Shown: positions 2,283-17,052 of the stretch, one piece after another
Position numbering within the stretch: the first letter of the stretch is position 1
Layout: each line of letters begins with the position of its first letter
Origin: a virus
Lineage: Duplodnaviria > Heunggongvirae > Uroviricota > Caudoviricetes
IMG/VR virus record: IMGVR_UViG_2703718818_000001
Coordinates: 1-18,526 of that record
Length of the DNA stretch: 18,526 nt
Direction: 5' to 3' (one strand)
Program-made: the position numbers and the translations under genes
The notes under the pieces: model-generated
What the model was told of the DNA's origin: nothing
Database searches by the model: none
What the model saw: the letters and a program-made list of their open reading frames with translations, nothing else

Positions 2283-3104
2283 TTACCTGGTTACCTTTTT
2301 TAACTGCCTCTCAGCCCATGCTTCCTCAATATCAAACTTGCTCACCAGCGCATCATAGAATTTCTTAACTGTTTTTTCCCATGACGCGCGTGTTATCTGG
2401 TTTGTCACCTCGCATATAGCATTAAATGCCTCTGTTGACGGCAATCTTTCATAGCCACGACCACCACAACGCTGGCAGTCCCTGATAACAGGCATACCCC
2501 GTTTTTCAGACTCTTCACGATGAATGGCAACACCGCGCCCACGACAATCTTTACAGGCGGTGGAAACCTCCCCCTTTCCGCCACACTCCGGACAGGCAAC
2601 TTTTACCACCTCCCTGACTTTTTTCCATTCCTCCCAGTAAGACGGATACACGCCTTTTGTGCACTTTGCCCACACTGGCGGCTTACCATCCGGATACTGG
2701 ATCTTGTTTGTAAAAACCTCGCTTTCAATAAATTTTTTTCCATGACAACAGGAGCACTGTTTTTTGCTCGCCGCGCTACGGGCATAATCTTCAAACGCAT
2801 ACGAAGCCATAATACGCATCACTGCCGGTTTTATTTCTGCCGGGAGTTTTCTTAACGCCGCCACGCAATCACACCGACTGAGTGCATATTCTGTCAGCAA
2901 TTCTGTTGCCCGTTCTCTGTCATTCATACTAATGCCCATTTTCCCAAGGAACGCAGAAAACCCCATCTCAGCCCGATTCTGTGTCATGCCCTGCGCGGCC
3001 ATCACATCAGTGATACTCAGCGCATCTTTCGACGTTGAGGCCGATGCATCAGTCAGGCCGGGGGATTTTGGGGAGTAGTATTTCGGTAAATCTTCCAGTT
3101 TCAT
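2283..3104 (-). CDS. Late-gene antitermination protein Q (phage-82-type Q family, with Cys-rich zinc-binding region)
   Basis: 273-aa ORF with Cys clusters (CPECGGKGE, CKDCRGRG, CQRCGGRG). Position directly upstream of the pR'-like promoter. ATG overlaps the RusA stop (ATGA). Confidence 0.8.
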   Translation of the reverse strand: MKLEDLPKYYSPKSPGLTDASASTSKDALSITDVMAAQGMTQNRAEMGFSAFLGKMGISMNDRERATELLTEYALSRCDCVAALRKLPAEIKPAVMRIMASYAFEDYARSAASKKQCSCCHGKKFIESEVFTNKIQYPDGKPPVWAKCTKGVYPSYWEEWKKVREVVKVACPECGGKGEVSTACKDCRGRGVAIHREESEKRGMPVIRDCQRCGGRGYERLPSTEAFNAICEVTNQITRASWEKTVKKFYDALVSKFDIEEAWAERQLKKVTR

Positions 3105-11128: not shown

Positions 11129-11254
11129 GTTTCCCTCCGAACTTTACGATGACACCGATGATTACAAATTTAATTTTAAATTTCAACTTCTATTTGTAAT
11201 GCCACTTATCAATTTTTTCTGTAGGATCGCGGAACTAGTTTACGAGGGGTGGTG
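11129..11254. promoter_or_regulatory. Immunity-region divergent promoter/operator region (OR-like)
   Basis: 126-bp AT-rich intergenic region between divergent HTH genes. Inverted half-sites TTACAAAT (11162-11169) and ATTTGTAA (11192-11199); imperfect palindrome AAATTTAA-TT-TTAAATTT (11166-11183). Confidence 0.55.
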
Positions 11255-11647
11255 ATGATCTTTGTAAAACGCCTTCAGCAGGTGTTGCAGGAATTGAATA
11301 TAAACCAGTCAGAGCTGGGAAGACGTCTTGGTGTAAAACCCCAATCCGTGCAAGGTTGGTTGAAAGGCGTGATGCCAAGAATGGATAAACTGGAAAAATT
11401 AGCAGAGCTCTCACAACATCCCGTCCATTGGTTCTTTATGGAAGAAGAAACTCTCGGCGATAAAATGGCTGTATCCAGTAATGACAACCAACCGCAACTT
11501 ACAGAACAACAACGAAAAATCATATCGCTTTTAGATGAGTTACCTCAAAGCGACGCAGAGCAGATCATTCGTGATATGGAGCAAAAACGCGATTTCTATA
11601 AACGGAAACTTGAAGAGTTACTGCGGCAGAAAAACAAAACTGCCTGA
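11255..11647 (+). CDS. CI/RacR-like prophage repressor: HTH protein with no peptidase (S24) domain
   Basis: 130 aa from the ATG at 11255 (GAGGGG 5 nt upstream). HTH segment NQSELGRRLGVKPQSVQGW closely matches the cro-like protein's HTH. C-terminal half is charged and coiled-coil-like, with no Ser-Lys protease motifs. Confidence 0.7.
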   Translation: MIFVKRLQQVLQELNINQSELGRRLGVKPQSVQGWLKGVMPRMDKLEKLAELSQHPVHWFFMEEETLGDKMAVSSNDNQPQLTEQQRKIISLLDELPQSDAEQIIRDMEQKRDFYKRKLEELLRQKNKTA

Positions 11648-11693: not shown

Positions 11694-12053
11694 TTATAAT
11701 CCAACCAGGCTTTCCAGGGGGATACCAAATTGATTATGAAGACGGCGAATCATTGGTAACGTAAGGCTTCTGGTACCATTCAACACCTCATAAACCCGAT
11801 TTTTTTTCCCAATTGCGGGTTCCAAATCTTTCACAGTCAGCCCCTGCTGTTCCATGCGAAATCTTATAGCTTCAATTGGGGATGGTGGCTCAATGGGATA
11901 ATGTTTTTTTTCATATTCCTCTATTAGCAAACACATCACCTCAAAAAAATCCCCCTCAGGCGTGTCAATTTCGGGCTCATTGTCGAACATGGGTTCAACA
12001 GCACGCAACGCGGCTTCATAATCTTGCTCTGTACGAATAGGTTTGATGTTCAT
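11694..12053 (-). CDS. higA: HigA-like antitoxin (C-terminal XRE-type HTH)
   Basis: 119 aa. C-terminal GLTVKDLEPAIGKKNRVYEVLNGTRSLTLPMIRRLHNQFGIP is an XRE-type HTH. ATG lies 2 nt after the stop of the upstream toxin gene, giving the toxin-first order typical of HigBA. Confidence 0.75.
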   Translation of the reverse strand: MNIKPIRTEQDYEAALRAVEPMFDNEPEIDTPEGDFFEVMCLLIEEYEKKHYPIEPPSPIEAIRFRMEQQGLTVKDLEPAIGKKNRVYEVLNGTRSLTLPMIRRLHNQFGIPLESLVGL

Positions 12054-12055
12054 GC

Positions 12056-12358
12056 TTACTCCAGTTCGATGGTATCAGCATCAATAGCATCGTATTCCTT
12101 GTGGTTTCCGATGAATTTAACAAATACCCATCCTCGCTGATACGCAATTGCAACAATTAAACGGTAATGATTACCTTTTATGTTGAATACCACGCGCCGG
12201 TTTTTCAATATACTGGCCGTTCGGTATTGTGCCTTAATGTCTGCTGGGCTTTTCCAGTCAGCTTTTGCCGCCTCATCCACCCATGCCCTTAGCGGTTGTT
12301 CTGCATCAGGATTCTCCGCCCAAAAATCCCTGAGTGTTTTAACTGAGATAATCTTCAT
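12056..12358 (-). CDS. higB: HigB-like toxin (RelE/ParE superfamily mRNA interferase)
   Basis: 100 aa from the ATG at 12358. C-terminal ...NIKGNHYRLIVAIAYQRGWVFVKFIGNHKEYD matches the HigB pattern as I recall it. The ORF track's 240-aa version (to 12778) is an upstream open-frame extension. Confidence 0.75.
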   Translation of the reverse strand: MKIISVKTLRDFWAENPDAEQPLRAWVDEAAKADWKSPADIKAQYRTASILKNRRVVFNIKGNHYRLIVAIAYQRGWVFVKFIGNHKEYDAIDADTIELE

Positions 12359-12386: not shown

Positions 12387-12401
12387 GATGCAACAGCTCG
12401 C

Positions 12402-12456
12402 AATTGCAAATTTAATAATAAACATGTTGACCAGTTAAATTTTAATTTGTAAATTG
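12402..12456 (+). promoter_or_regulatory. pL-like early-left promoter (TTGACC-17 nt-TAAATT) flanked by operator-like repeats related to those in the cI/cro region
   Basis: -35 at 12427-12432, -10 at 12450-12455. AATTGCAAATTTAAT (12402-12416) differs by one base from ATTACAAATTTAAT in the OR-like region, and ATTTGTAA recurs at 12445-12452. Confidence 0.5.
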
Positions 12457-12632
12457 TATCCATAAACCCACCCCGCCCCACAGAACGCAGGGCAATACTT
12501 CGAGTTACCCGGCAGTGGTCAGGGGTTAAGTAGCCAGCCTGAGGCGTATGAACATGACGGCGGGGATTACGTTTAACTATGCAGCAGGTTTTTTGTTCCG
12601 CTACCCCGGCGTTAAGGGGAAATGAGGTCAAC

Positions 12633-12785
12633 ATGGATACGCTCAATCTTGGCAACAACGAATCTCTGGTATGCGGTGTGTTCCCTAACCAGGACGGCAC
12701 GTTTACCGCGATGACGTATACCAAAAGTAAAAAGTTTAAAACCGAAGCTGGCGCGCGTCGCTGGTTAGCCAGAAACACTAACTGA
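12633..12785 (+). CDS. Small hypothetical protein (50 aa), first ORF of the early-left transcript; possibly YdaF/DUF1391-like
   Basis: ATG at 12633 with GAGG 5 nt upstream (the ORF track start at 12579 is a longer in-frame extension). Translation MDTLNLGNNESLVCGVFPNQDGTFTAMTYTKSKKFKTEAGARRWLARNTN. Family name is a weak recollection. Confidence 0.4.
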   Translation: MDTLNLGNNESLVCGVFPNQDGTFTAMTYTKSKKFKTEAGARRWLARNTN

Positions 12786-12822
12786 TTAGCACCAGTAAAA
12801 ACAGGTTGCCACTGGTTAATTT

Positions 12823-12842
12823 ACCCTGAAAAGTCAGGGTAT
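12823..12842 (+). other. Perfect hairpin TACCCTGA-AAAG-TCAGGGTA with no U tract; boxB-like RNA element or processing site
   Basis: 8-bp arms with a 4-nt loop, about 40 nt after the 50-aa ORF stop. The boxB comparison is speculative. Confidence 0.3.
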
Positions 12843-13579
12843 AACACGAAAGCGCACGGCGAAGCTCTTTCCCTTAGAAGGCTTGTCGTTAGATTTCTTC
12901 GAACGTGCGCTTCCGGTTGTGGCAATCCGCGAAATGGCGCGGCGGTAAGTATGGCTGGGGTTTCCTCCATTGCTCCAGAAAATGCACCGGGTTGTCAGGT
13001 TGACCATACGATTAAGTGACAGCCCCGCCACAATACCCATGTGTAGTCTTTGGTGGCATCAGTTCTACTCCGTGACTGCTCTGCCACCCTTTTTAAAGTG
13101 AATTTTGTGATGCGGTGAATGCGGCTAAGCGCACGCGGAACAGTTAAAACCGTAAAGTGGTCTTTTACGGGGCGTAACGGGCATACTTCTGTATTCCGGC
13201 GTTAATTGTTAACTGGTTAACGTCACCTGGAGGCACCAGGCACTGCATCGACAAAGTTCACTTCGGTGATGAAAGGTAAGAGAAAATGTTGAATGTAGCT
13301 ATTGAAAACCAGAACGGGTGGAATTATAGTGCACCTGCACCTCATAAAGCGGGTGCCGGGATTGCTACCCCGATGTTCATCATGGCGCATAACCGCGCTC
13401 AGGCGGTTTTTTTATGCGTAATGCACAGCCACATTCAGATTATGGTGGGGCGTGCAGGGCAGCCGCAAGGCTGGCCGGGTTCCATGATGACCGGTTGTAG
13501 CAACCCTGTGCGTCTCACCACCCATGAGATTGCTACCTCCGGTGGTGAGTTAATGAAATTCATCATGGAGGCTGCCATC

Positions 13580-14137
13580 ATGGCTACTATCCCTGCCCTT
13601 TCTCACCCTGAAATTACTATCGCCAATGGGCGTGCTGTTACATCCTCTTTAGCTGTTGCCGAGTATTTCCGGAAACCACACAAAGATGTACTGGCAAAAA
13701 TTTCACGTCTAGACTGTTCAGCAGAATTCACTGAGCGAAATTTTTCGCCCAGTGAATATACCGACTCAACCGGGCGCAAACTCCCTATGTACCAAATCAC
13801 CAAAAACGGCTTCGTTTTCCTGGTGATGGGCTTCACCGGCAAAAAAGCCGCTGCATTTAAAGAAGCCTACATCGCTGAGTTCGATCGCATGGAGAAAGAA
13901 CTGCGCCAGAATAACGCCCCGTCTCCCGACAAAATGATTCACGGGGACGGACGTACCCTGGTTATCCGTCTCGACGAACACGGCAATATCAAATTCACTG
14001 AAACCGTTCCTGATGGTGCAATGGTCTGCACCCTGGATACCTTCCAGTTTTATCTGGAGAAACAAGGCTGGACTCTTGTAAACCGGAGCGCAATTAAAAA
14101 TATGACTGTGGAGCAATTACTAAAAATTCATTGTTGA
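13580..14137 (+). CDS. Rha-family phage regulatory protein
   Basis: Conserved Rha-like N-terminal segment ...SSLAVAEYFRKPHKDVLAKISRL... Preferred start is the ATG at 13580 (GGAGG 8 nt upstream), with 13553 as an alternative. The ORF track's start at 13286 adds an implausible N-terminal extension. Confidence 0.7.
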   Translation: MATIPALSHPEITIANGRAVTSSLAVAEYFRKPHKDVLAKISRLDCSAEFTERNFSPSEYTDSTGRKLPMYQITKNGFVFLVMGFTGKKAAAFKEAYIAEFDRMEKELRQNNAPSPDKMIHGDGRTLVIRLDEHGNIKFTETVPDGAMVCTLDTFQFYLEKQGWTLVNRSAIKNMTVEQLLKIHC

Positions 14138-14147
14138 GGACGCGATA

Positions 14148-14336
14148 ATGGAAACGTTATTACCAAACGTTAATACGTCTGAAGGGTGTTTTGATATTGG
14201 TATTCTGCTCAGTAACCGGGAGTTTACTGAAGATGCCATTAAGATGAGAAAATATGAGCCTTATCTTCTCAATGATAATTCCATACTCTCCAGAATTGCC
14301 CTTCTTAAACTTGGTATTTTCGGAGGGCAGCAGTGA
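14148..14336 (+). CDS. Small hypothetical protein (62 aa), AT-rich by eye
   Basis: ATG at 14148 with GAGGA 7 nt upstream, 10 nt after the Rha stop. No family recognised. Confidence 0.4.
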   Translation: METLLPNVNTSEGCFDIGILLSNREFTEDAIKMRKYEPYLLNDNSILSRIALLKLGIFGGQQ

Positions 14337-14613: not shown

Positions 14614-17052
14614 ATGAGCACTGATAAAGAAGAATTTTCGCTATATTGCGAAGCAAAAAATGACAAGGTCAGAAAACGCCTTGGGATTAAAGGAGGTTTT
14701 TACTGGACTACAGCAAAAAAATTATCTGTTGCCATCTCACGGTGCGTTGTTGCAATGGACGAGGCAGGCTACGACGCTGATGATTTCAAAAAACCTGTCC
14801 GCGTCCATTTCCCCGTTGTGAATGACCTTCCACCGGAAGGCGTGTTTGATACCGAATTCTGCAACCGCTATGAAAAAGGCGGGGAAGATGGCATCACAAT
14901 GATATTTATAGCGCCTTCCCCCTCAGTTCAGGACAAACCAGCCAGCACTGACAATACCAACGTCAATGGCGAAGACATGGCTGAGATTGAGGATAATATG
15001 CTCCTGCCGATTTCCGGTCAGGAACTGCCCATTCGCTGGCTTGCGCAACATGGCAGCGAAAAACCGGTAACGCACGTTTCACGGGAAGAACTTCAGGCAT
15101 TACATATCGCACGAGCTGAAGAACTGCCGGCTGTTACTGCCCTGGCTATTTCCCACAACACAAAGCTGCTCGACCCGCTGGAGATTCGCGACCTTCACAA
15201 ACTGGTACGCGACACAGACAAAGTTTTCCCTAATCCCGTTAATTCCAGTCTGGGGTTAATGACTGCTTTTTTCGAAGCATACCTGGACGCTGACTATACC
15301 GATCGAGGTCTGCTGACAAAAGAGTGGATGAAAGGAAATCGTGTTTCTCGCATCACCCGCACGGCTTCCGGTGCAAATGCCGGTGGCGGAAATAAAACCG
15401 ATCGTAATCCTGACTTAGTACACACCCTCGATACTCTGGATGTGGAGGCTGCAGCAGCCACACTTCCGATGGATTTTAATATTTATGAAATACCCGTGAG
15501 CGTTTATCGTCGCGCAAAAGAAATCGTCCTGAAAAAAGAAAGTCCGTTCAGGGAATGGTCCGCAGCACTTCGCGCAACCCCTGGTATCCTGGACTATTCC
15601 CGCGCAGCTATTTTTGCACTTATCCGGAGCGCCCACCCTGAGTTTTATCACTACCCGGGACGCCTTCAGGGGTATATCAATGCCAACCTGACAGAAACTG
15701 ATCACGAGAATCCCACAGCTGAAACGCTCATGGCTGCCCGGCATACACCGGAAAAAGATATCCTGGAAGAAATTAACGGCGGACTGGCTGCTGAGTGCAA
15801 AACAGAAGAAGAAAAAAATGATGAAGAAAACCCGCAACCATCTGGCGCAATGGCAGATGAACAGGCAACGGCTGAAACAATGGCAGCGGATACAGTTGAA
15901 CATCATCAGGACCCGCAGCCGCTGGATGACAAGTCACAGGTAAAAGTTACTGCTGAAGAAGTAAATAAAATTATGGAGGCAGCAGACATCAGTCGACCAG
16001 ATGCCGACAAATTGCTTGCCGCTTCTCGTGGTGAGTTTGTTGAAGGGATTAGCGACCCGAATGATTCGAAATGGGTTAAGGGGATTGAAACCTGCGATTC
16101 TGTGAACCAGAACCAGCAAGAAACGGAACAGAACGGTCAGAAAGCGGAACAAAACAGCCCAAATGCGTTACAAAACGAGCCAGAAACGAAACAACCTGAA
16201 CCAGTAGTGCAACAGGAAGAGGAAAAAGTTTGTACCGCATGCAATCAGACTGGTGGTGGTAACTGCCCTGATTGTGGCGCAGTGATGGGGGACGCAACCT
16301 ACCAGGAGACATTCAACGAAGAAAGCCAGGATGAAGCCCGGGAAAAAGATCCGGAGGAAATGGAAAGTGCCGGACTCCCGAACAAGGAGTGCACCGAAGG
16401 CGATCAACATGCCAATGGCAATAATGAAACAGGCGAGACAGCAAATCCCTTAATTAAGGTGAACGGTCATCGTGAAATCACATCCACCAGCAGGTTATGG
16501 CACCATCTGATGATTGACCTTGAAACAATGGGCAAAAATCCTGACGCACCAATAGCCTCAATAGGCGCTGTATTTTTCGATCCACAAACCGGAGAGCAGG
16601 GGCCTGAATTCAGCAAAATAATTGATATGGGTACATGTGGCGGCACTGTAGACATAAGCACCATCGAATGGTGGCTTCAACGCTCTGGCGAAGCCCGTGC
16701 CGCCATTTTAGCTGATCGAATACCGCTTGATGATGCGCTTTTACAATTACGGGAATTTATAGACGAAAACTCCGGTGAGTTTTTTGTTCAGGTCTGGGGA
16801 AATGGAGCCAACTTCGACAACGTGATTTTACGCCGTTCATATGAACGGCAGGAGATCCCCTGCCCGTGGCGTTACACCAATGATCGTGATGTAAGAACGA
16901 TTGTTGCCCTGGGGCTGGTGATGGATTTCGATGCTCGAAGTGTCATCACATTTGAGGGTGAACGCCATAATGCCCTGCACGATGCGCGTTACCAGGCAAA
17001 ATACGTTTCAGCTATCTGGCAAAAACTGTTCCCGAATCAGGCTGATTTTTAA
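14614..17052 (+). CDS. Large multidomain protein (812 aa): N-terminal region of unknown function, acidic low-complexity linker, Cys4 zinc-ribbon-like motif, C-terminal DEDDh-type 3'-5' exonuclease domain
   Basis: ATG at 14614 with GAGG upstream. DEDDh motifs: IDLETMG (residues 634-640), [10 protein letters not shown] (730-739), HNALHD (785-790). C540-x2-C543-x7-C551-x2-C554 at nt 16231-16275. E/Q/N/D-rich segment at about residues 360-535. Confidence 0.8.

Follow-up and report, generated by a model that had tools for sequence, protein, structure and literature searches.

The ~0.8-kb gene-poor segment at positions 12790-13580 of the 18,526-nt stretch of DNA analyzed here (the window) consists of three prophage small RNAs, DicF, IsrK, and C4, plus processing structures, and all of this content is of kinds already described. 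We consider it probable (at roughly 0.8) that an E. coli lambdoid prophage carries here a Qin-type dicBF early-left operon, that the segment makes up the non-coding part of that operon, and that an IsrK-C4 antisense-RNA cassette is inserted into it, a DicF-processing part and an IsrK-C4 cassette part together giving the best explanation of the whole. It is an ordinary regulatory region of a known type, and annotation pipelines leave such regions unlabelled or misread them as protein.

A covariance-model scan of the window detected three Rfam families above their gathering scores, DicF, IsrK, and C4 antisense RNA, all on the plus strand, which also carries every other feature given below unless stated otherwise. 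The original prediction, which had proposed such a scan, guessed that the segment encodes structured RNA or an sRNA. This part of its interpretation was right, the remainder of the segment being RNA-processing structure of the DicF precursor; its nut-like antitermination sites, decayed gene, and regulator-binding sites were not supported, as detailed below. Its description of the segment as ORF-poor is fair, in that the sole long ORF is 13286-14137 and no ORF is conserved on either strand within the segment, and all of the hairpins and repeats that it listed are present, displaced by 1-2 nt at most. Three sub-segments, 13090-13265 (z = -5.3), 13337-13600 (z = -3.5), and 12840-13095 (z = -3.1), each folded better than all of their 200 dinucleotide shuffles. 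No tRNA or tmRNA was found in the region.

The order of the flanking genes, like the family memberships, was observed directly. A pL-like (dicBp-like) sigma-70 promoter outside the segment (TTGACC-17-TAAATT, 12427-12455; 9 of 12 positions in a consensus scan) corresponds in position to the promoter region 5' of ydfA in Qin-type loci. The 50-aa ORF mentioned in the original prediction is ydfA itself (DUF1391, 12633-12785; Pfam E 1.5e-29; 88% nucleotide identity to K-12 ydfA), the first gene of a dicBF-type operon. From there the order is ydfA, DicF, the cassette, dicB (cell-division inhibitor, 14148-14336; Pfam DicB E 5.6e-36), DUF1482, and RecE, homologous to K-12 Qin, with ydfB and ydfC missing from the window locus. 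DicF thus occupies its dicBF-type position 3' of ydfA, 5' of dicB, and behind a pL-like promoter.

The IsrK-C4 cassette between dicF and dicB

BLAST against K-12 Qin delimited an inserted cassette of ~850 nt (13264-14121) that carries a promoter, IsrK, C4, and Rha, lies between dicF and dicB, and displaces dicB. Window positions 12821-13260 and 14123-14252 align to adjacent K-12 positions that overlap by 8 nt, and the cassette is bounded by an imperfect ~12-nt duplication (ACAAAGTTCACT at 13252-13263, AAAAATTCATT at 14122-14132). Only about 9 of 123 DicF loci carry it.

The first element of the cassette is a predicted isrK promoter (TTGAAA-17-TATAGT, 13302-13330; 10 of 12 consensus positions) with an inferred start at ~13337; it is conserved in relatives, and Gifsy-1 has TTGACA-17-TATATT at the same place. 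IsrK (13337-13413; RF01394), equivalent to P4 seqA and the c4-a1b1 element, scored 64.7 bits against a gathering score of 50 and covered model positions 1-77 of 77, which places it within the isrK family; the overlapping Rfam c4-a1b1 model reached 19.6 bits, below its gathering score of 46.7. The equivalence of IsrK with seqA, and of C4 with CI, has been stated before (PMC3632133). IsrK contains the target copies b1 (13360-13369) and a1 (13376-13385) and ends in an intrinsic terminator, the AACCGC...GCGGTT stem at 13391-13408 followed by T7 to 13413. The sequence scan thus found both a promoter-like site and a terminator-like stem with T7 at IsrK, and the original prediction had correctly placed a terminator-like element at 13391-13413 inside a doubtful N-terminal extension of Rha.

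The second RNA, C4 (13438-13525; RF01695), is equivalent to P4 CI RNA and Salmonella STnc1160. It scored 77.9 bits against a gathering score of 45 over model positions 1-87 of 87, placing it within the family, and its Rfam alignment displays a tRNA-like basal stem with an ACCACCC tail. Its recognition elements are a' (13482-13490, in a hairpin loop) and b' (13497-13506), to which a1 and b1 of IsrK are complementary. A second, downstream target (13528-13571) consists of b2 (13528-13537) and a2 (13559-13568), exact repeats of b1 and a1; a2 overlaps the Rha Shine-Dalgarno sequence GGAGG (13567-13571), so this target stands at the translation start of the regulated operon.

These complementarities and their covariation are direct observations. 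Among 31-40 relatives, variation is concentrated in six short blocks, b1, a1, a', b', b2, and a2, and in 40 unique relatives it does not extend beyond them. There are at least 11 a-alleles and 5-6 b-alleles, and complementarity is kept in all of them. For the IsrK-C4 pair, 93.7% of cells were paired compared with 69.4% in shuffles and 35-53% in slid controls. Twelve of its 19 pairs changed on both sides, and double-change cells numbered 126 against 37.6 expected, a value reached by none of 500 shuffles. Because of register shifts between alleles in the alignment, a'/a2 and b'/b2 were assessed by RNAduplex energies of cognate and non-cognate partners: cognate duplexes were stronger by about 7-9 kcal/mol, and the cognate partner was the best in 38 of 39 cases for a'-a2, b'-b1, and b'-b2.

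C4-type RNA is matured from a longer transcript by RNase P in P1 and P4. In the window, the promoter at 13302-13330 would drive a 77-nt IsrK ending at the terminator at 13391-13413, and read-through past this terminator would produce a longer RNA containing the C4-type RNA. The exposed a' and b' elements of C4 could then pair either with the IsrK site pair (b1, a1) or with the second pair (b2, a2) that overlaps the Rha ribosome-binding site. As for the direction of regulation, we infer that Rha translation would be blocked when C4 pairs with b2/a2, by analogy to P1 immI, and released when C4 pairs with IsrK in cis or in trans, by analogy to Gifsy-1. Since overexpression of the C4-equivalent RNA in Gifsy-1 gave no relief of IsrK-driven toxicity (PMC4825925), C4 may not act as a simple repressor in lambdoid prophages.

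Rha and its N-terminal extension

The Rha-family regulator, a putative antirepressor, has a core of 185 aa (13580-14137; Pfam Phage_pRha E 9.9e-31). The window gene belongs to the Rha family by Pfam, relatives are annotated as antirepressor, and its third-codon-position excess starts at 13580. The long ORF at 13286-14137 is the Rha frame with a 98-codon 5' extension. Within it, an orf45-equivalent leader ORF (13442-13579) starts with AUUAUGGUGGGGCGU, as does Gifsy-1 orf45, runs through C4, and continues without a stop to the Rha ATG, with which it shares its frame. The leader/Rha junction reads ATCATGG or ATTATGG in all relatives, the frame through C4 is open into Rha in 36 of 40, and in-frame stops are depleted in the variable blocks. 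Leader translation may be part of the mechanism, which a pure "RBS occlusion" model does not capture, and partial translation from ATG 13442 is plausible.

Could the extension be truly coding, yielding a 283-aa two-domain Ash-Rha protein to which the IsrK and C4 matches are incidental? In 36 of 40 unique relatives the ATG is conserved and no stop interrupts the ~98-99 codons of the frame, the extension has a full-length Pfam Phage_ASH match (E 1.8e-18), only 2 of 63 variable-block alleles have a stop in this frame compared with 21 and 20 for the two others, and PGAP annotates the long form of Rha. However, codon-position diversity is flat across the extension (0.075/0.074/0.098), whereas Rha has a clear third-position excess (0.11/0.094/0.259); this analysis found no coding-type substitution pattern in the extension, and Phage_ASH (PF10554) did not behave here as a translated polypeptide under amino-acid selection. 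Variation in the extension is instead organised as RNA-RNA covariation. The predicted isrK promoter lies 3' of ATG 13286, and a strong terminator sits inside the extension frame. Other elements point the same way: in Gifsy-1 the conserved 3' half of C4 is read in another frame, with a stop at anrP, and a variable peptide with conserved nucleotides has been reported there (PMC4825925); the Pfam Ash match in P4 falls on the old "cI" ORF over CI RNA, and the real epsilon protein matches another family; and ArgO145 annotates the short Rha. A coding extension is thus unlikely, although it is the alternative that fares best. Judged from its nucleotide variation, the Rha N-terminal extension with its Pfam "Ash" match is a conceptual translation of this RNA region. 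The phi80 rha gene has neither IsrK nor C4 upstream, which shows that Rha proteins do not as a rule come with the RNA cassette.

More tentatively, the cassette may be a "bar-coded" antisense switch, in which E. coli lambdoid prophages share a reshuffled set of at least 11 a-alleles and 5-6 b-alleles, each keeping three-way complementarity between IsrK, C4, and the Rha ribosome-binding site, and in which C4 is in addition read as a leader fused in frame to Rha. The odds are somewhat against this combined reading.

The DicF precursor and the dicF-dicB spacer

DicF with its intrinsic terminator occupies 13038-13094 (RF00039; 61.1 bits against a gathering score of 48, model positions 1-52 of 52 at 13038-13089), which places it within its family. 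The GGTGGCA/TGCCACC stem of the original prediction (13052-13058/13082-13088, followed by T5 at 13090-13094) is the DicF terminator, and it is held by a compensatory C-G to U-A change at 13054/13086. Between 13058 and 13094 only two positions differ from K-12, 13065 in the loop and 13086, the 3' side of the stem change. The RNA thus has the 3' hairpin with U-run and the conserved ftsZ-pairing 3' half of DicF, but unrelated sequence replaces the K-12-like single-stranded 5' seed that is used for xylR (CAUGUGUAGUCU in the window, UUUCUGGUGACGU in K-12). This seed is a minority allele found in 6 of 93 unique loci; the target set may therefore differ from that in K-12, and family membership is unaffected. 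DicF-ftsZ duplex energies were -33 to -38 kcal/mol compared with a shuffle mean of -27 to -30 (sd 4), a comparison uninformative on ftsZ targeting by this variant.

Upstream of DicF, a stem at 12847-12859/12903-12915 with a variable inner hairpin is conserved, with 97-100% pairing in an RNAalifold analysis of 79 unique sequences, and it is followed by a conserved multi-branch leader of the DicF precursor (12916-13034), within the sub-segment 12840-13095 that folded with z = -3.1. The 5' end of the 190-nt DicF species of K-12 maps to window position ~12910, in the 3' arm of this stem, and that species is RNase III-dependent in K-12 (PMC10448788). The stem at 12847-12915 is thus probably where RNase III generates the 5' end of the longer DicF species, the one of 190 nt in K-12. 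DicF would be cut from a polycistronic transcript starting at the pL-like promoter, with this upstream stem as the likely RNase III site and with its 3' end at its own terminator (13052-13094). Mature DicF of K-12 base-pairs with ftsZ and other host mRNAs and represses them. The window DicF would be expected to repress ftsZ and other host mRNAs by the same base pairing.

Downstream of DicF, RNAalifold analysis of 47 unique sequences revealed a structured spacer domain (13097-13262; z = -5.3) closed by a ~20-bp helix, 13097-13117/13241-13262, in which the same sequences display G-C/G-U/U-A exchanges. The helix encloses hairpins at 13121-13136, at 13150-13156/13164-13170 (CCGTAAA/TTTACGG, lineage-specific), at 13198-13207/13215-13224, which contains the GTTAA repeats that start at 13201, 13208, and 13216, and at 13226-13230/13236-13240 (CCTGG/CCAGG in the DNA, the CCUGG hairpin). 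RNase III yields the 72-nt DicF of K-12 by cutting ~19 nt past the terminator (PMC5069750), which corresponds to about window position 13108, in the closing helix. The spacer domain is thus probably an RNase III substrate: read-through transcripts would fold the ~20-bp helix as a likely second RNase III site around the GTTAA and CCUGG hairpins.

The Rfam STnc100 model matched this domain below threshold (29.1 bits, threshold 47; E 6.5e-5) with a like architecture. Positions 13110-13248 align to the STnc100 core (model positions 30-148), and the closing helix, two hairpins, and an ACC(N)GGAGGCACC(N)GGCAC hairpin are held in common. The 5' part and 3' terminator of STnc100 are absent from the window domain, and STnc100 is a free-standing gene, whereas the window domain lies inside an operon transcript. 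STnc100, one of the STnc100/PasD prophage sRNAs, has itself no assigned function (PMC13192938). A full STnc100 copy is present elsewhere in the window, at 362-570 on the minus strand.

The original prediction had also entertained regulator binding sites in the region. Under such a reading, the GTTAA(C/T) repeats and the CCTGG palindrome would be DNA operators of a prophage regulator acting on dicB or the cassette, not RNA structure. GTTAAC is palindromic, the repeats are spaced 7-8 bp apart, and the stretch lies ~80-100 bp 5' of the isrK promoter. It is also near-invariant in 93 unique homologous loci, so covariation cannot prove an RNA role for it. Nevertheless, the repeats supply both the arms and the loop of a 10-bp hairpin predicted within the domain (z = -5.3) that the 20-bp helix closes and that resembles STnc100, and the closing helix itself has the exchanges described above. 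The STnc100 model has, in place of the GTTAA hairpin, one of another sequence in which pairing is preserved, and in the CC(U/G)GG hairpin a U-A pair has been exchanged for G-C, a compensatory change. Moreover, in most relatives the stretch lies within the transcript just 5' of dicB with no promoter nearby. We therefore give the operators only a slim chance, slightly below that of a coding extension, and retain the RNA domain as the preferred reading of the spacer.

The original prediction further proposed an alignment of related prophages to see whether the hairpins are conserved with compensatory changes. The DicF stem has such a change, but the hairpins at 12822-12841 and 13150-13170 are lineage-specific, being missing from about 88-90% of the 93 unique homologous loci. 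The former, a perfect 8-bp hairpin in the repeat scan (12822-12829/12834-12841), marks the junction left without ydfB/ydfC; the columns of its 5' arm are gaps in about 90% of the 93 homologs, and the K-12 version has only 4 bp. It is the candidate hairpin for another suggestion, antitermination at nut sites (boxA/boxB) of the lambda kind, as it lies 3' of the pL-like promoter and begins with CCCUGAAAA, like lambda boxB. We find nut sites very improbable: no N-like gene was seen among the operon ORFs, of which the first is ydfA; the boxA-consensus-related 9-mer CGCTCTTTA had no match near the region with up to one mismatch; the loop of the hairpin, on its 7-8-bp stem, has 4 nt where boxB has a pentaloop, and the absence of the hairpin from most homologs has been noted; and the other hairpins are explained by terminators, sRNA stems, or RNase III stems. 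Of the boxA, boxB pentaloop, and N-type antiterminator of a lambda-type nut site, none was thus seen in the region and operon searched. Least credible of all is a decayed protein-coding gene, be it ydfB/ydfC or another early gene in fragments: in many relatives ydfB and ydfC do separate ydfA from the DicF leader, and in some relatives PGAP annotates a "hypothetical protein" on the minus strand of this region, but window positions 12786-12820 have no similarity to ydfB/ydfC and K-12 homology resumes 113 nt after the ydfC end, which indicates clean absence without remnants, not decay, the minus-strand ORF (68 aa in the window, 12834-13040) has no Pfam match and ranges from 0 to 68 aa among relatives, and K-12 itself has equal ~340-nt and ~175-nt non-coding spacers around dicF.

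Related systems and implications

Among the closest known systems is, for the operon, K-12 Qin dicBF. The two share the order promoter, ydfA, DicF, dicB, ydfD-like, and RecE-like, 80% nucleotide identity over the DicF leader, DicF, and the dicF-dicB spacer, a nearly identical DicF 3' (ftsZ-pairing) half and terminator, and conserved stems that coincide with the ends of the K-12 RNase III products. By contrast, the window lacks ydfB/ydfC, its DicF 5' seed is replaced, its upstream spacer is 14 nt shorter, the 850-nt IsrK-C4-Rha cassette parts dicF from dicB, and a HigBA module replaces the space beside the repressor.

For the cassette, a close known system is Gifsy-1 isrK-orf45(STnc1160)-anrP, in which anrP, an antirepressor gene that has been studied, follows the IsrK-C4 pair (Hershko-Shalev et al., 2016; PMC4825925). 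Promoter, IsrK with its terminator, C4-type RNA, and a two-part target by the ribosome-binding site occur in both with equal order and spacing, and the leader ORF starts at the same AUUAUGGUGGGGCGU. However, AnrP is not homologous to the window Rha (BLASTP E 0.007), the Gifsy-1 leader ORF stops at an AUGA overlap whereas that of the window is fused in frame to Rha, the recognition alleles differ, and the Gifsy-1 pair lies beside the Q-like antiterminator antQ, not in an early-left dicBF operon.

The immunity regions of P4 (seqA, CI RNA, seqC) and P1/P7 (immI: a1b1, c4, a2b2, icd-ant) likewise have an antisense RNA with two recognition elements (processed in P4 and P1), matching sites both upstream and downstream of it, a downstream site at the start of an operon with a derepression or, in the window, putative antirepressor gene, and specificity set by short covarying blocks. 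In P4, the Rfam models for C4 and isrK score 74.9 and 60.8 bits, respectively, in the same order as in the window, and epsilon, the gene for helper derepression, lies about 250 nt downstream of the pair. The output is transcription termination in P4 and a translational block with polarity in P1. Unlike these elements, the lambdoid prophage that hosts the window cassette has a protein repressor as well, at 11249-11647, and its RNA would be an accessory control and not the main immunity. P1/P7 have a classic pair of alleles, compared with at least 11 a- and 5-6 b-alleles among the relatives of the window.

The practical value of these findings lies in annotation. In RefSeq, near-identical loci are recorded without any RNA feature at this place and with a 283-aa "Rha" whose first 98 codons overlie two sRNA genes. 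The Pfam family Ash appears to rest on translations of the C4/IsrK RNA region, and papers that use PF10554 as a P4 epsilon marker or discuss an "Ash domain" may be counting RNA genes. If C4 is also translated as a leader, one RNA stretch would be under pairing and stop-codon-avoidance constraints at once, and the Pfam "Ash" domain would be the translation of an RNA gene. If the bar-code reading is true, co-resident prophages would hold private, non-cross-reacting controls over Rha-family regulators. All parts of the locus are of known kinds, and one early operon here combines two cell-division inhibitors, DicF and DicB, with an RNA-gated putative antirepressor, which makes the locus relevant to prophage cross-talk in E. 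coli.

Three known RNA families between ydfA and Rha

The window represents the early region of a lambdoid prophage of E. coli. Its minus strand carries a Cro-like gene, replication genes, RusA, the Q antiterminator and a DNA methylase, and its plus strand carries, in this order, the repressor gene, a pL-like promoter (12427-12455), ydfA (DUF1391), the ORF-poor segment of about 0.8 kb (12790-13580), Rha, DicB, DUF1482 and a RecE-like exonuclease. The exonuclease (14614-17052, plus strand, 812 aa) combines an Exonuclease VIII region with a C-terminal Rv2179c-like 3'-5' exoribonuclease domain (E 9.6e-63). After the repressor gene, ahead of the pL-like promoter, lies a minus-strand HigBA module consisting of a HigB toxin and an HTH antitoxin (11694-12358); RelBE occupies its place in L003, a related RefSeq locus, and the position therefore looks like a toxin-antitoxin swap site.

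The suggestion in the original prediction that the segment encodes structured RNA or an sRNA was borne out by an Rfam scan of the whole window at gathering thresholds. Three plus-strand matches fall inside the segment: DicF (13038-13089; 61.1 bits against a threshold of 48), IsrK (13337-13413; 64.7 against 50) and the C4 antisense RNA (13438-13525; 77.9 against 45). The segment is thus made up of three RNA families with existing Rfam entries, each of which has been studied in close homologs. The only long ORF touching it (13286-14137) is the Rha frame with 98 extra upstream codons. Three sub-segments folded better than all 200 dinucleotide shuffles (z = -5.3, -3.5 and -3.1), and the structure of the segment therefore exceeds chance.

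All of the hairpins and repeats listed from the sequence were found, and two of them acquired an identity. The GGTGGCA/TGCCACC stem (13052-13058/13082-13088), with five T after it, is the hairpin of the DicF terminator, and AACCGC...GCGGTT (13391-13408), followed by seven T, is the IsrK terminator. The perfect 8-bp inverted repeat at 12822-12841 and the CCGTAAA/TTTACGG inverted repeat at 13150-13170 are lineage-specific, being absent from approximately 88-90% of homologs among 93 unique DicF loci.

DicF and the structured RNA around it

The operon is the counterpart of dicBF in the Qin prophage of K-12. In alignment with Qin, 12595-12776 matches ydfA, 12821-13260 matches, at 80% identity, dicF together with the spacers on either side of it (ydfC-dicF and dicF-dicB), and 14123-14252 matches the beginning of dicB. 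The K-12 genes ydfB and ydfC are missing from the window, and approximately 850 nucleotides (13264-14121) are inserted between dicF and dicB. Partial matches to the locus were present in 4731 of 5426 complete E. coli genomes, 203 of which carried at least 80% of a 1.3-kb query (12400-13700) in one place. In viral contigs, dicF is directly followed by dicB at about 98 of 123 DicF loci, and the insertion is found at about nine.

The 3' half of DicF is nearly identical to that of K-12, and the terminator stem is preserved through a C-G to U-A double change. In contrast, the 5' seed (13038-13050) is replaced, reading CAUGUGUAGUCU in the window and UUUCUGGUGACGU in K-12; this seed allele occurs in only 6 of the 93 unique DicF loci. 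Since the 5' end of K-12 DicF pairs with xylR, while its 3' end pairs with ftsZ and pykA (PMC5069750), the different seed raises the possibility that DicF of the window has a target set different from that of K-12.

The non-coding flanks of DicF are mostly highly conserved across the 93 loci, with a few short variable blocks. A consensus fold of 79 unique sequences pairs 12847-12859 with 12903-12915 and continues as a multi-branch leader up to DicF. In K-12, RNase III generates the 5' end of a 190-nt DicF species and RNase E generates the 53-nt form (PMC10448788); the computed position of the 190-nt 5' end, approximately 12910, is in the 3' arm of this stem. On the other side of the DicF terminator, a helix of about 20 bp (13097-13117 with 13241-13262), supported by 47 unique sequences, encloses a small hairpin (13121-13136), a variable stretch, a 10-bp hairpin (13198-13207/13215-13224) and a CCUGG hairpin (the CCTGG/CCAGG inverted repeat at 13226-13240). 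Two of the three GTTAA repeats (13201, 13208 and 13216) form the arms of the 10-bp hairpin, and its loop holds the third. A 72-nt DicF arises in K-12 through RNase III processing of the full-length transcript (PMC5069750), which places that cut approximately 19 nt beyond the 53-nt end; the implied position, approximately 13108, is within the 5' strand of the long helix.

When compared with the STnc100 covariance model, the domain of the long helix scored below threshold (29.1 bits against 47; E 6.5e-5), with its helices matched and a compensatory difference in the CC(U/G)GG hairpin. The dicF-dicB spacer (13110-13248) thus looks like a diverged form of the STnc100 core. Elsewhere in the window, at 362-570 on the minus strand, the STnc100 sRNA is matched over its full length (168 bits), downstream of the Q antiterminator (2283-3104) and the DNA methylase (650-1708).

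The IsrK-C4-Rha cassette

The extra sequence relative to K-12 carries a predicted near-consensus promoter (TTGAAA-17-TATAGT, 13302-13330); the IsrK match starts seven bases downstream of it, and C4 and Rha follow. An imperfect duplication of about 12 nt of the dicB leader flanks this cassette (13252-13263 and 14122-14132). Because the last four Rha codons and the stop lie in dicB-leader-derived sequence, the arrangement suggests that the cassette was inserted by recombination at the short repeat.

We aligned the 40 unique upstream sequences obtained from 80 loci encoding Rha relatives. Two viral contigs (L187 and L194), in which the RNA region upstream of the Rha relative is quite different and aligns poorly with the IsrK-C4 consensus, were excluded from covariation counts where possible. 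Variation in the upstream sequence is almost confined to six short blocks: b1 (13360-13369) and a1 (13376-13385) in IsrK, a' (13482-13490, in a hairpin loop) and b' (13497-13506) in C4, and b2 (13528-13537) and a2 (13559-13568) downstream. The a2 block overlaps the Shine-Dalgarno sequence GGAGG (13567-13571) ahead of ATG 13580. Within the window, one 10-mer makes up both b1 and b2 and another makes up both a1 and a2; neither has a further copy there. Relatives display at least 11 a alleles and five to six b alleles in several combinations, and in every allele a' can pair with a1 and a2, and b' with b1 and b2. For IsrK-C4 pairs, 93.7% of cells were paired versus 69.4% in shuffles, and 35-53% were paired when partners were slid by 1-3 columns. 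Both sides changed in 12 of 19 pairs, giving 126 double-change cells against 37.6 expected, a number reached by none of 500 shuffles. Cognate duplexes were stronger than non-cognate ones by 7-9 kcal/mol, and the best partner was the cognate in 38 of 39 cases (a'-a2, b'-b1 and b'-b2).

IsrK has been termed a structural homolog of P4 seqA (Hershko-Shalev et al., PMC4825925), and Barquist et al. equated IsrK with seqA and C4 with the P4 CI RNA and noted this system in lambdoid prophages (PMC3632133). The P4 immunity region yielded Rfam C4 and isrK matches approximately 250 nt upstream of the derepression gene epsilon, and Gifsy-1 has IsrK, the c4-a1b1 element and C4 in the same order as the window, upstream of anrP. 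Given IsrK and C4 in both, the cassette belongs to a known class whose members differ in the partner protein: AnrP and the Rha protein are not homologous, and no IsrK or C4 RNAs were found upstream of rha in phi80. In Gifsy-1, the IsrK read-through RNA is translationally silent and is opened by short IsrK in trans, anrP translation requires translation of a 45-codon leader ORF, and a stable processed RNA, STnc1160, occurs downstream of IsrK (PMC4825925). The minimum-energy fold of the window's read-through RNA, in which b1/a1 pair with b'/a' in cis, matches the "structure A" described there. The leader differs, however: at the E. coli loci it runs in frame into Rha without a stop. By analogy with these homologous systems, C4 would be matured out of IsrK read-through transcripts and might, by pairing with b2/a2, keep Rha, a putative antirepressor, untranslated; IsrK, in cis or in trans, would compete for a'/b' and set the switch.

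The Rha start and the Pfam Ash family

At near-identical loci, PGAP annotates a "Rha" of 283-284 aa from the equivalent of 13286, approximately 98 codons upstream of the likely start (RefSeq records L001, 2405-3256; L002, 2841-3695; L003, 2953-3807). This CDS covers IsrK, its terminator and C4, and PGAP annotated no ncRNA features at the three loci. The Rha start is likely mis-annotated in these records. The extension (13286-13579) is a full-length match to Pfam Phage_ASH (PF10554; E 1.8e-18), which some papers take as an epsilon marker or discuss as an "Ash domain" of unknown function. At the P4 locus (L205, 8168-8584, minus strand), Phage_ASH matches the obsolete "cI" ORF over the CI RNA, and the epsilon protein matches a different family, PF25738.

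In favor of a real protein domain, the frame continues open into Rha in 36 of the 40 relatives, with in-frame stops in only 2 of 63 alleles of the variable blocks versus 21 and 20 in the other two frames. However, four observations speak against one: codon-position diversity is flat in the extension (0.075/0.074/0.098) compared with Rha (0.11/0.094/0.259), ATG 13286 is upstream of the predicted IsrK transcription start, the frame contains a terminator, and the conserved 3' half of C4 is read in a different frame in Gifsy-1. The stop depletion, located downstream of ATG 13442, does not fit a conserved polypeptide; it fits ribosomes needing to traverse the leader, a requirement demonstrated for orf45 of Gifsy-1. 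The Pfam Ash family thus looks less like a protein domain than like the translation of an RNA region. Three points deserve note: this probable RNA origin of the Ash family, the wide range of recognition alleles, and the misplaced annotated start of Rha.
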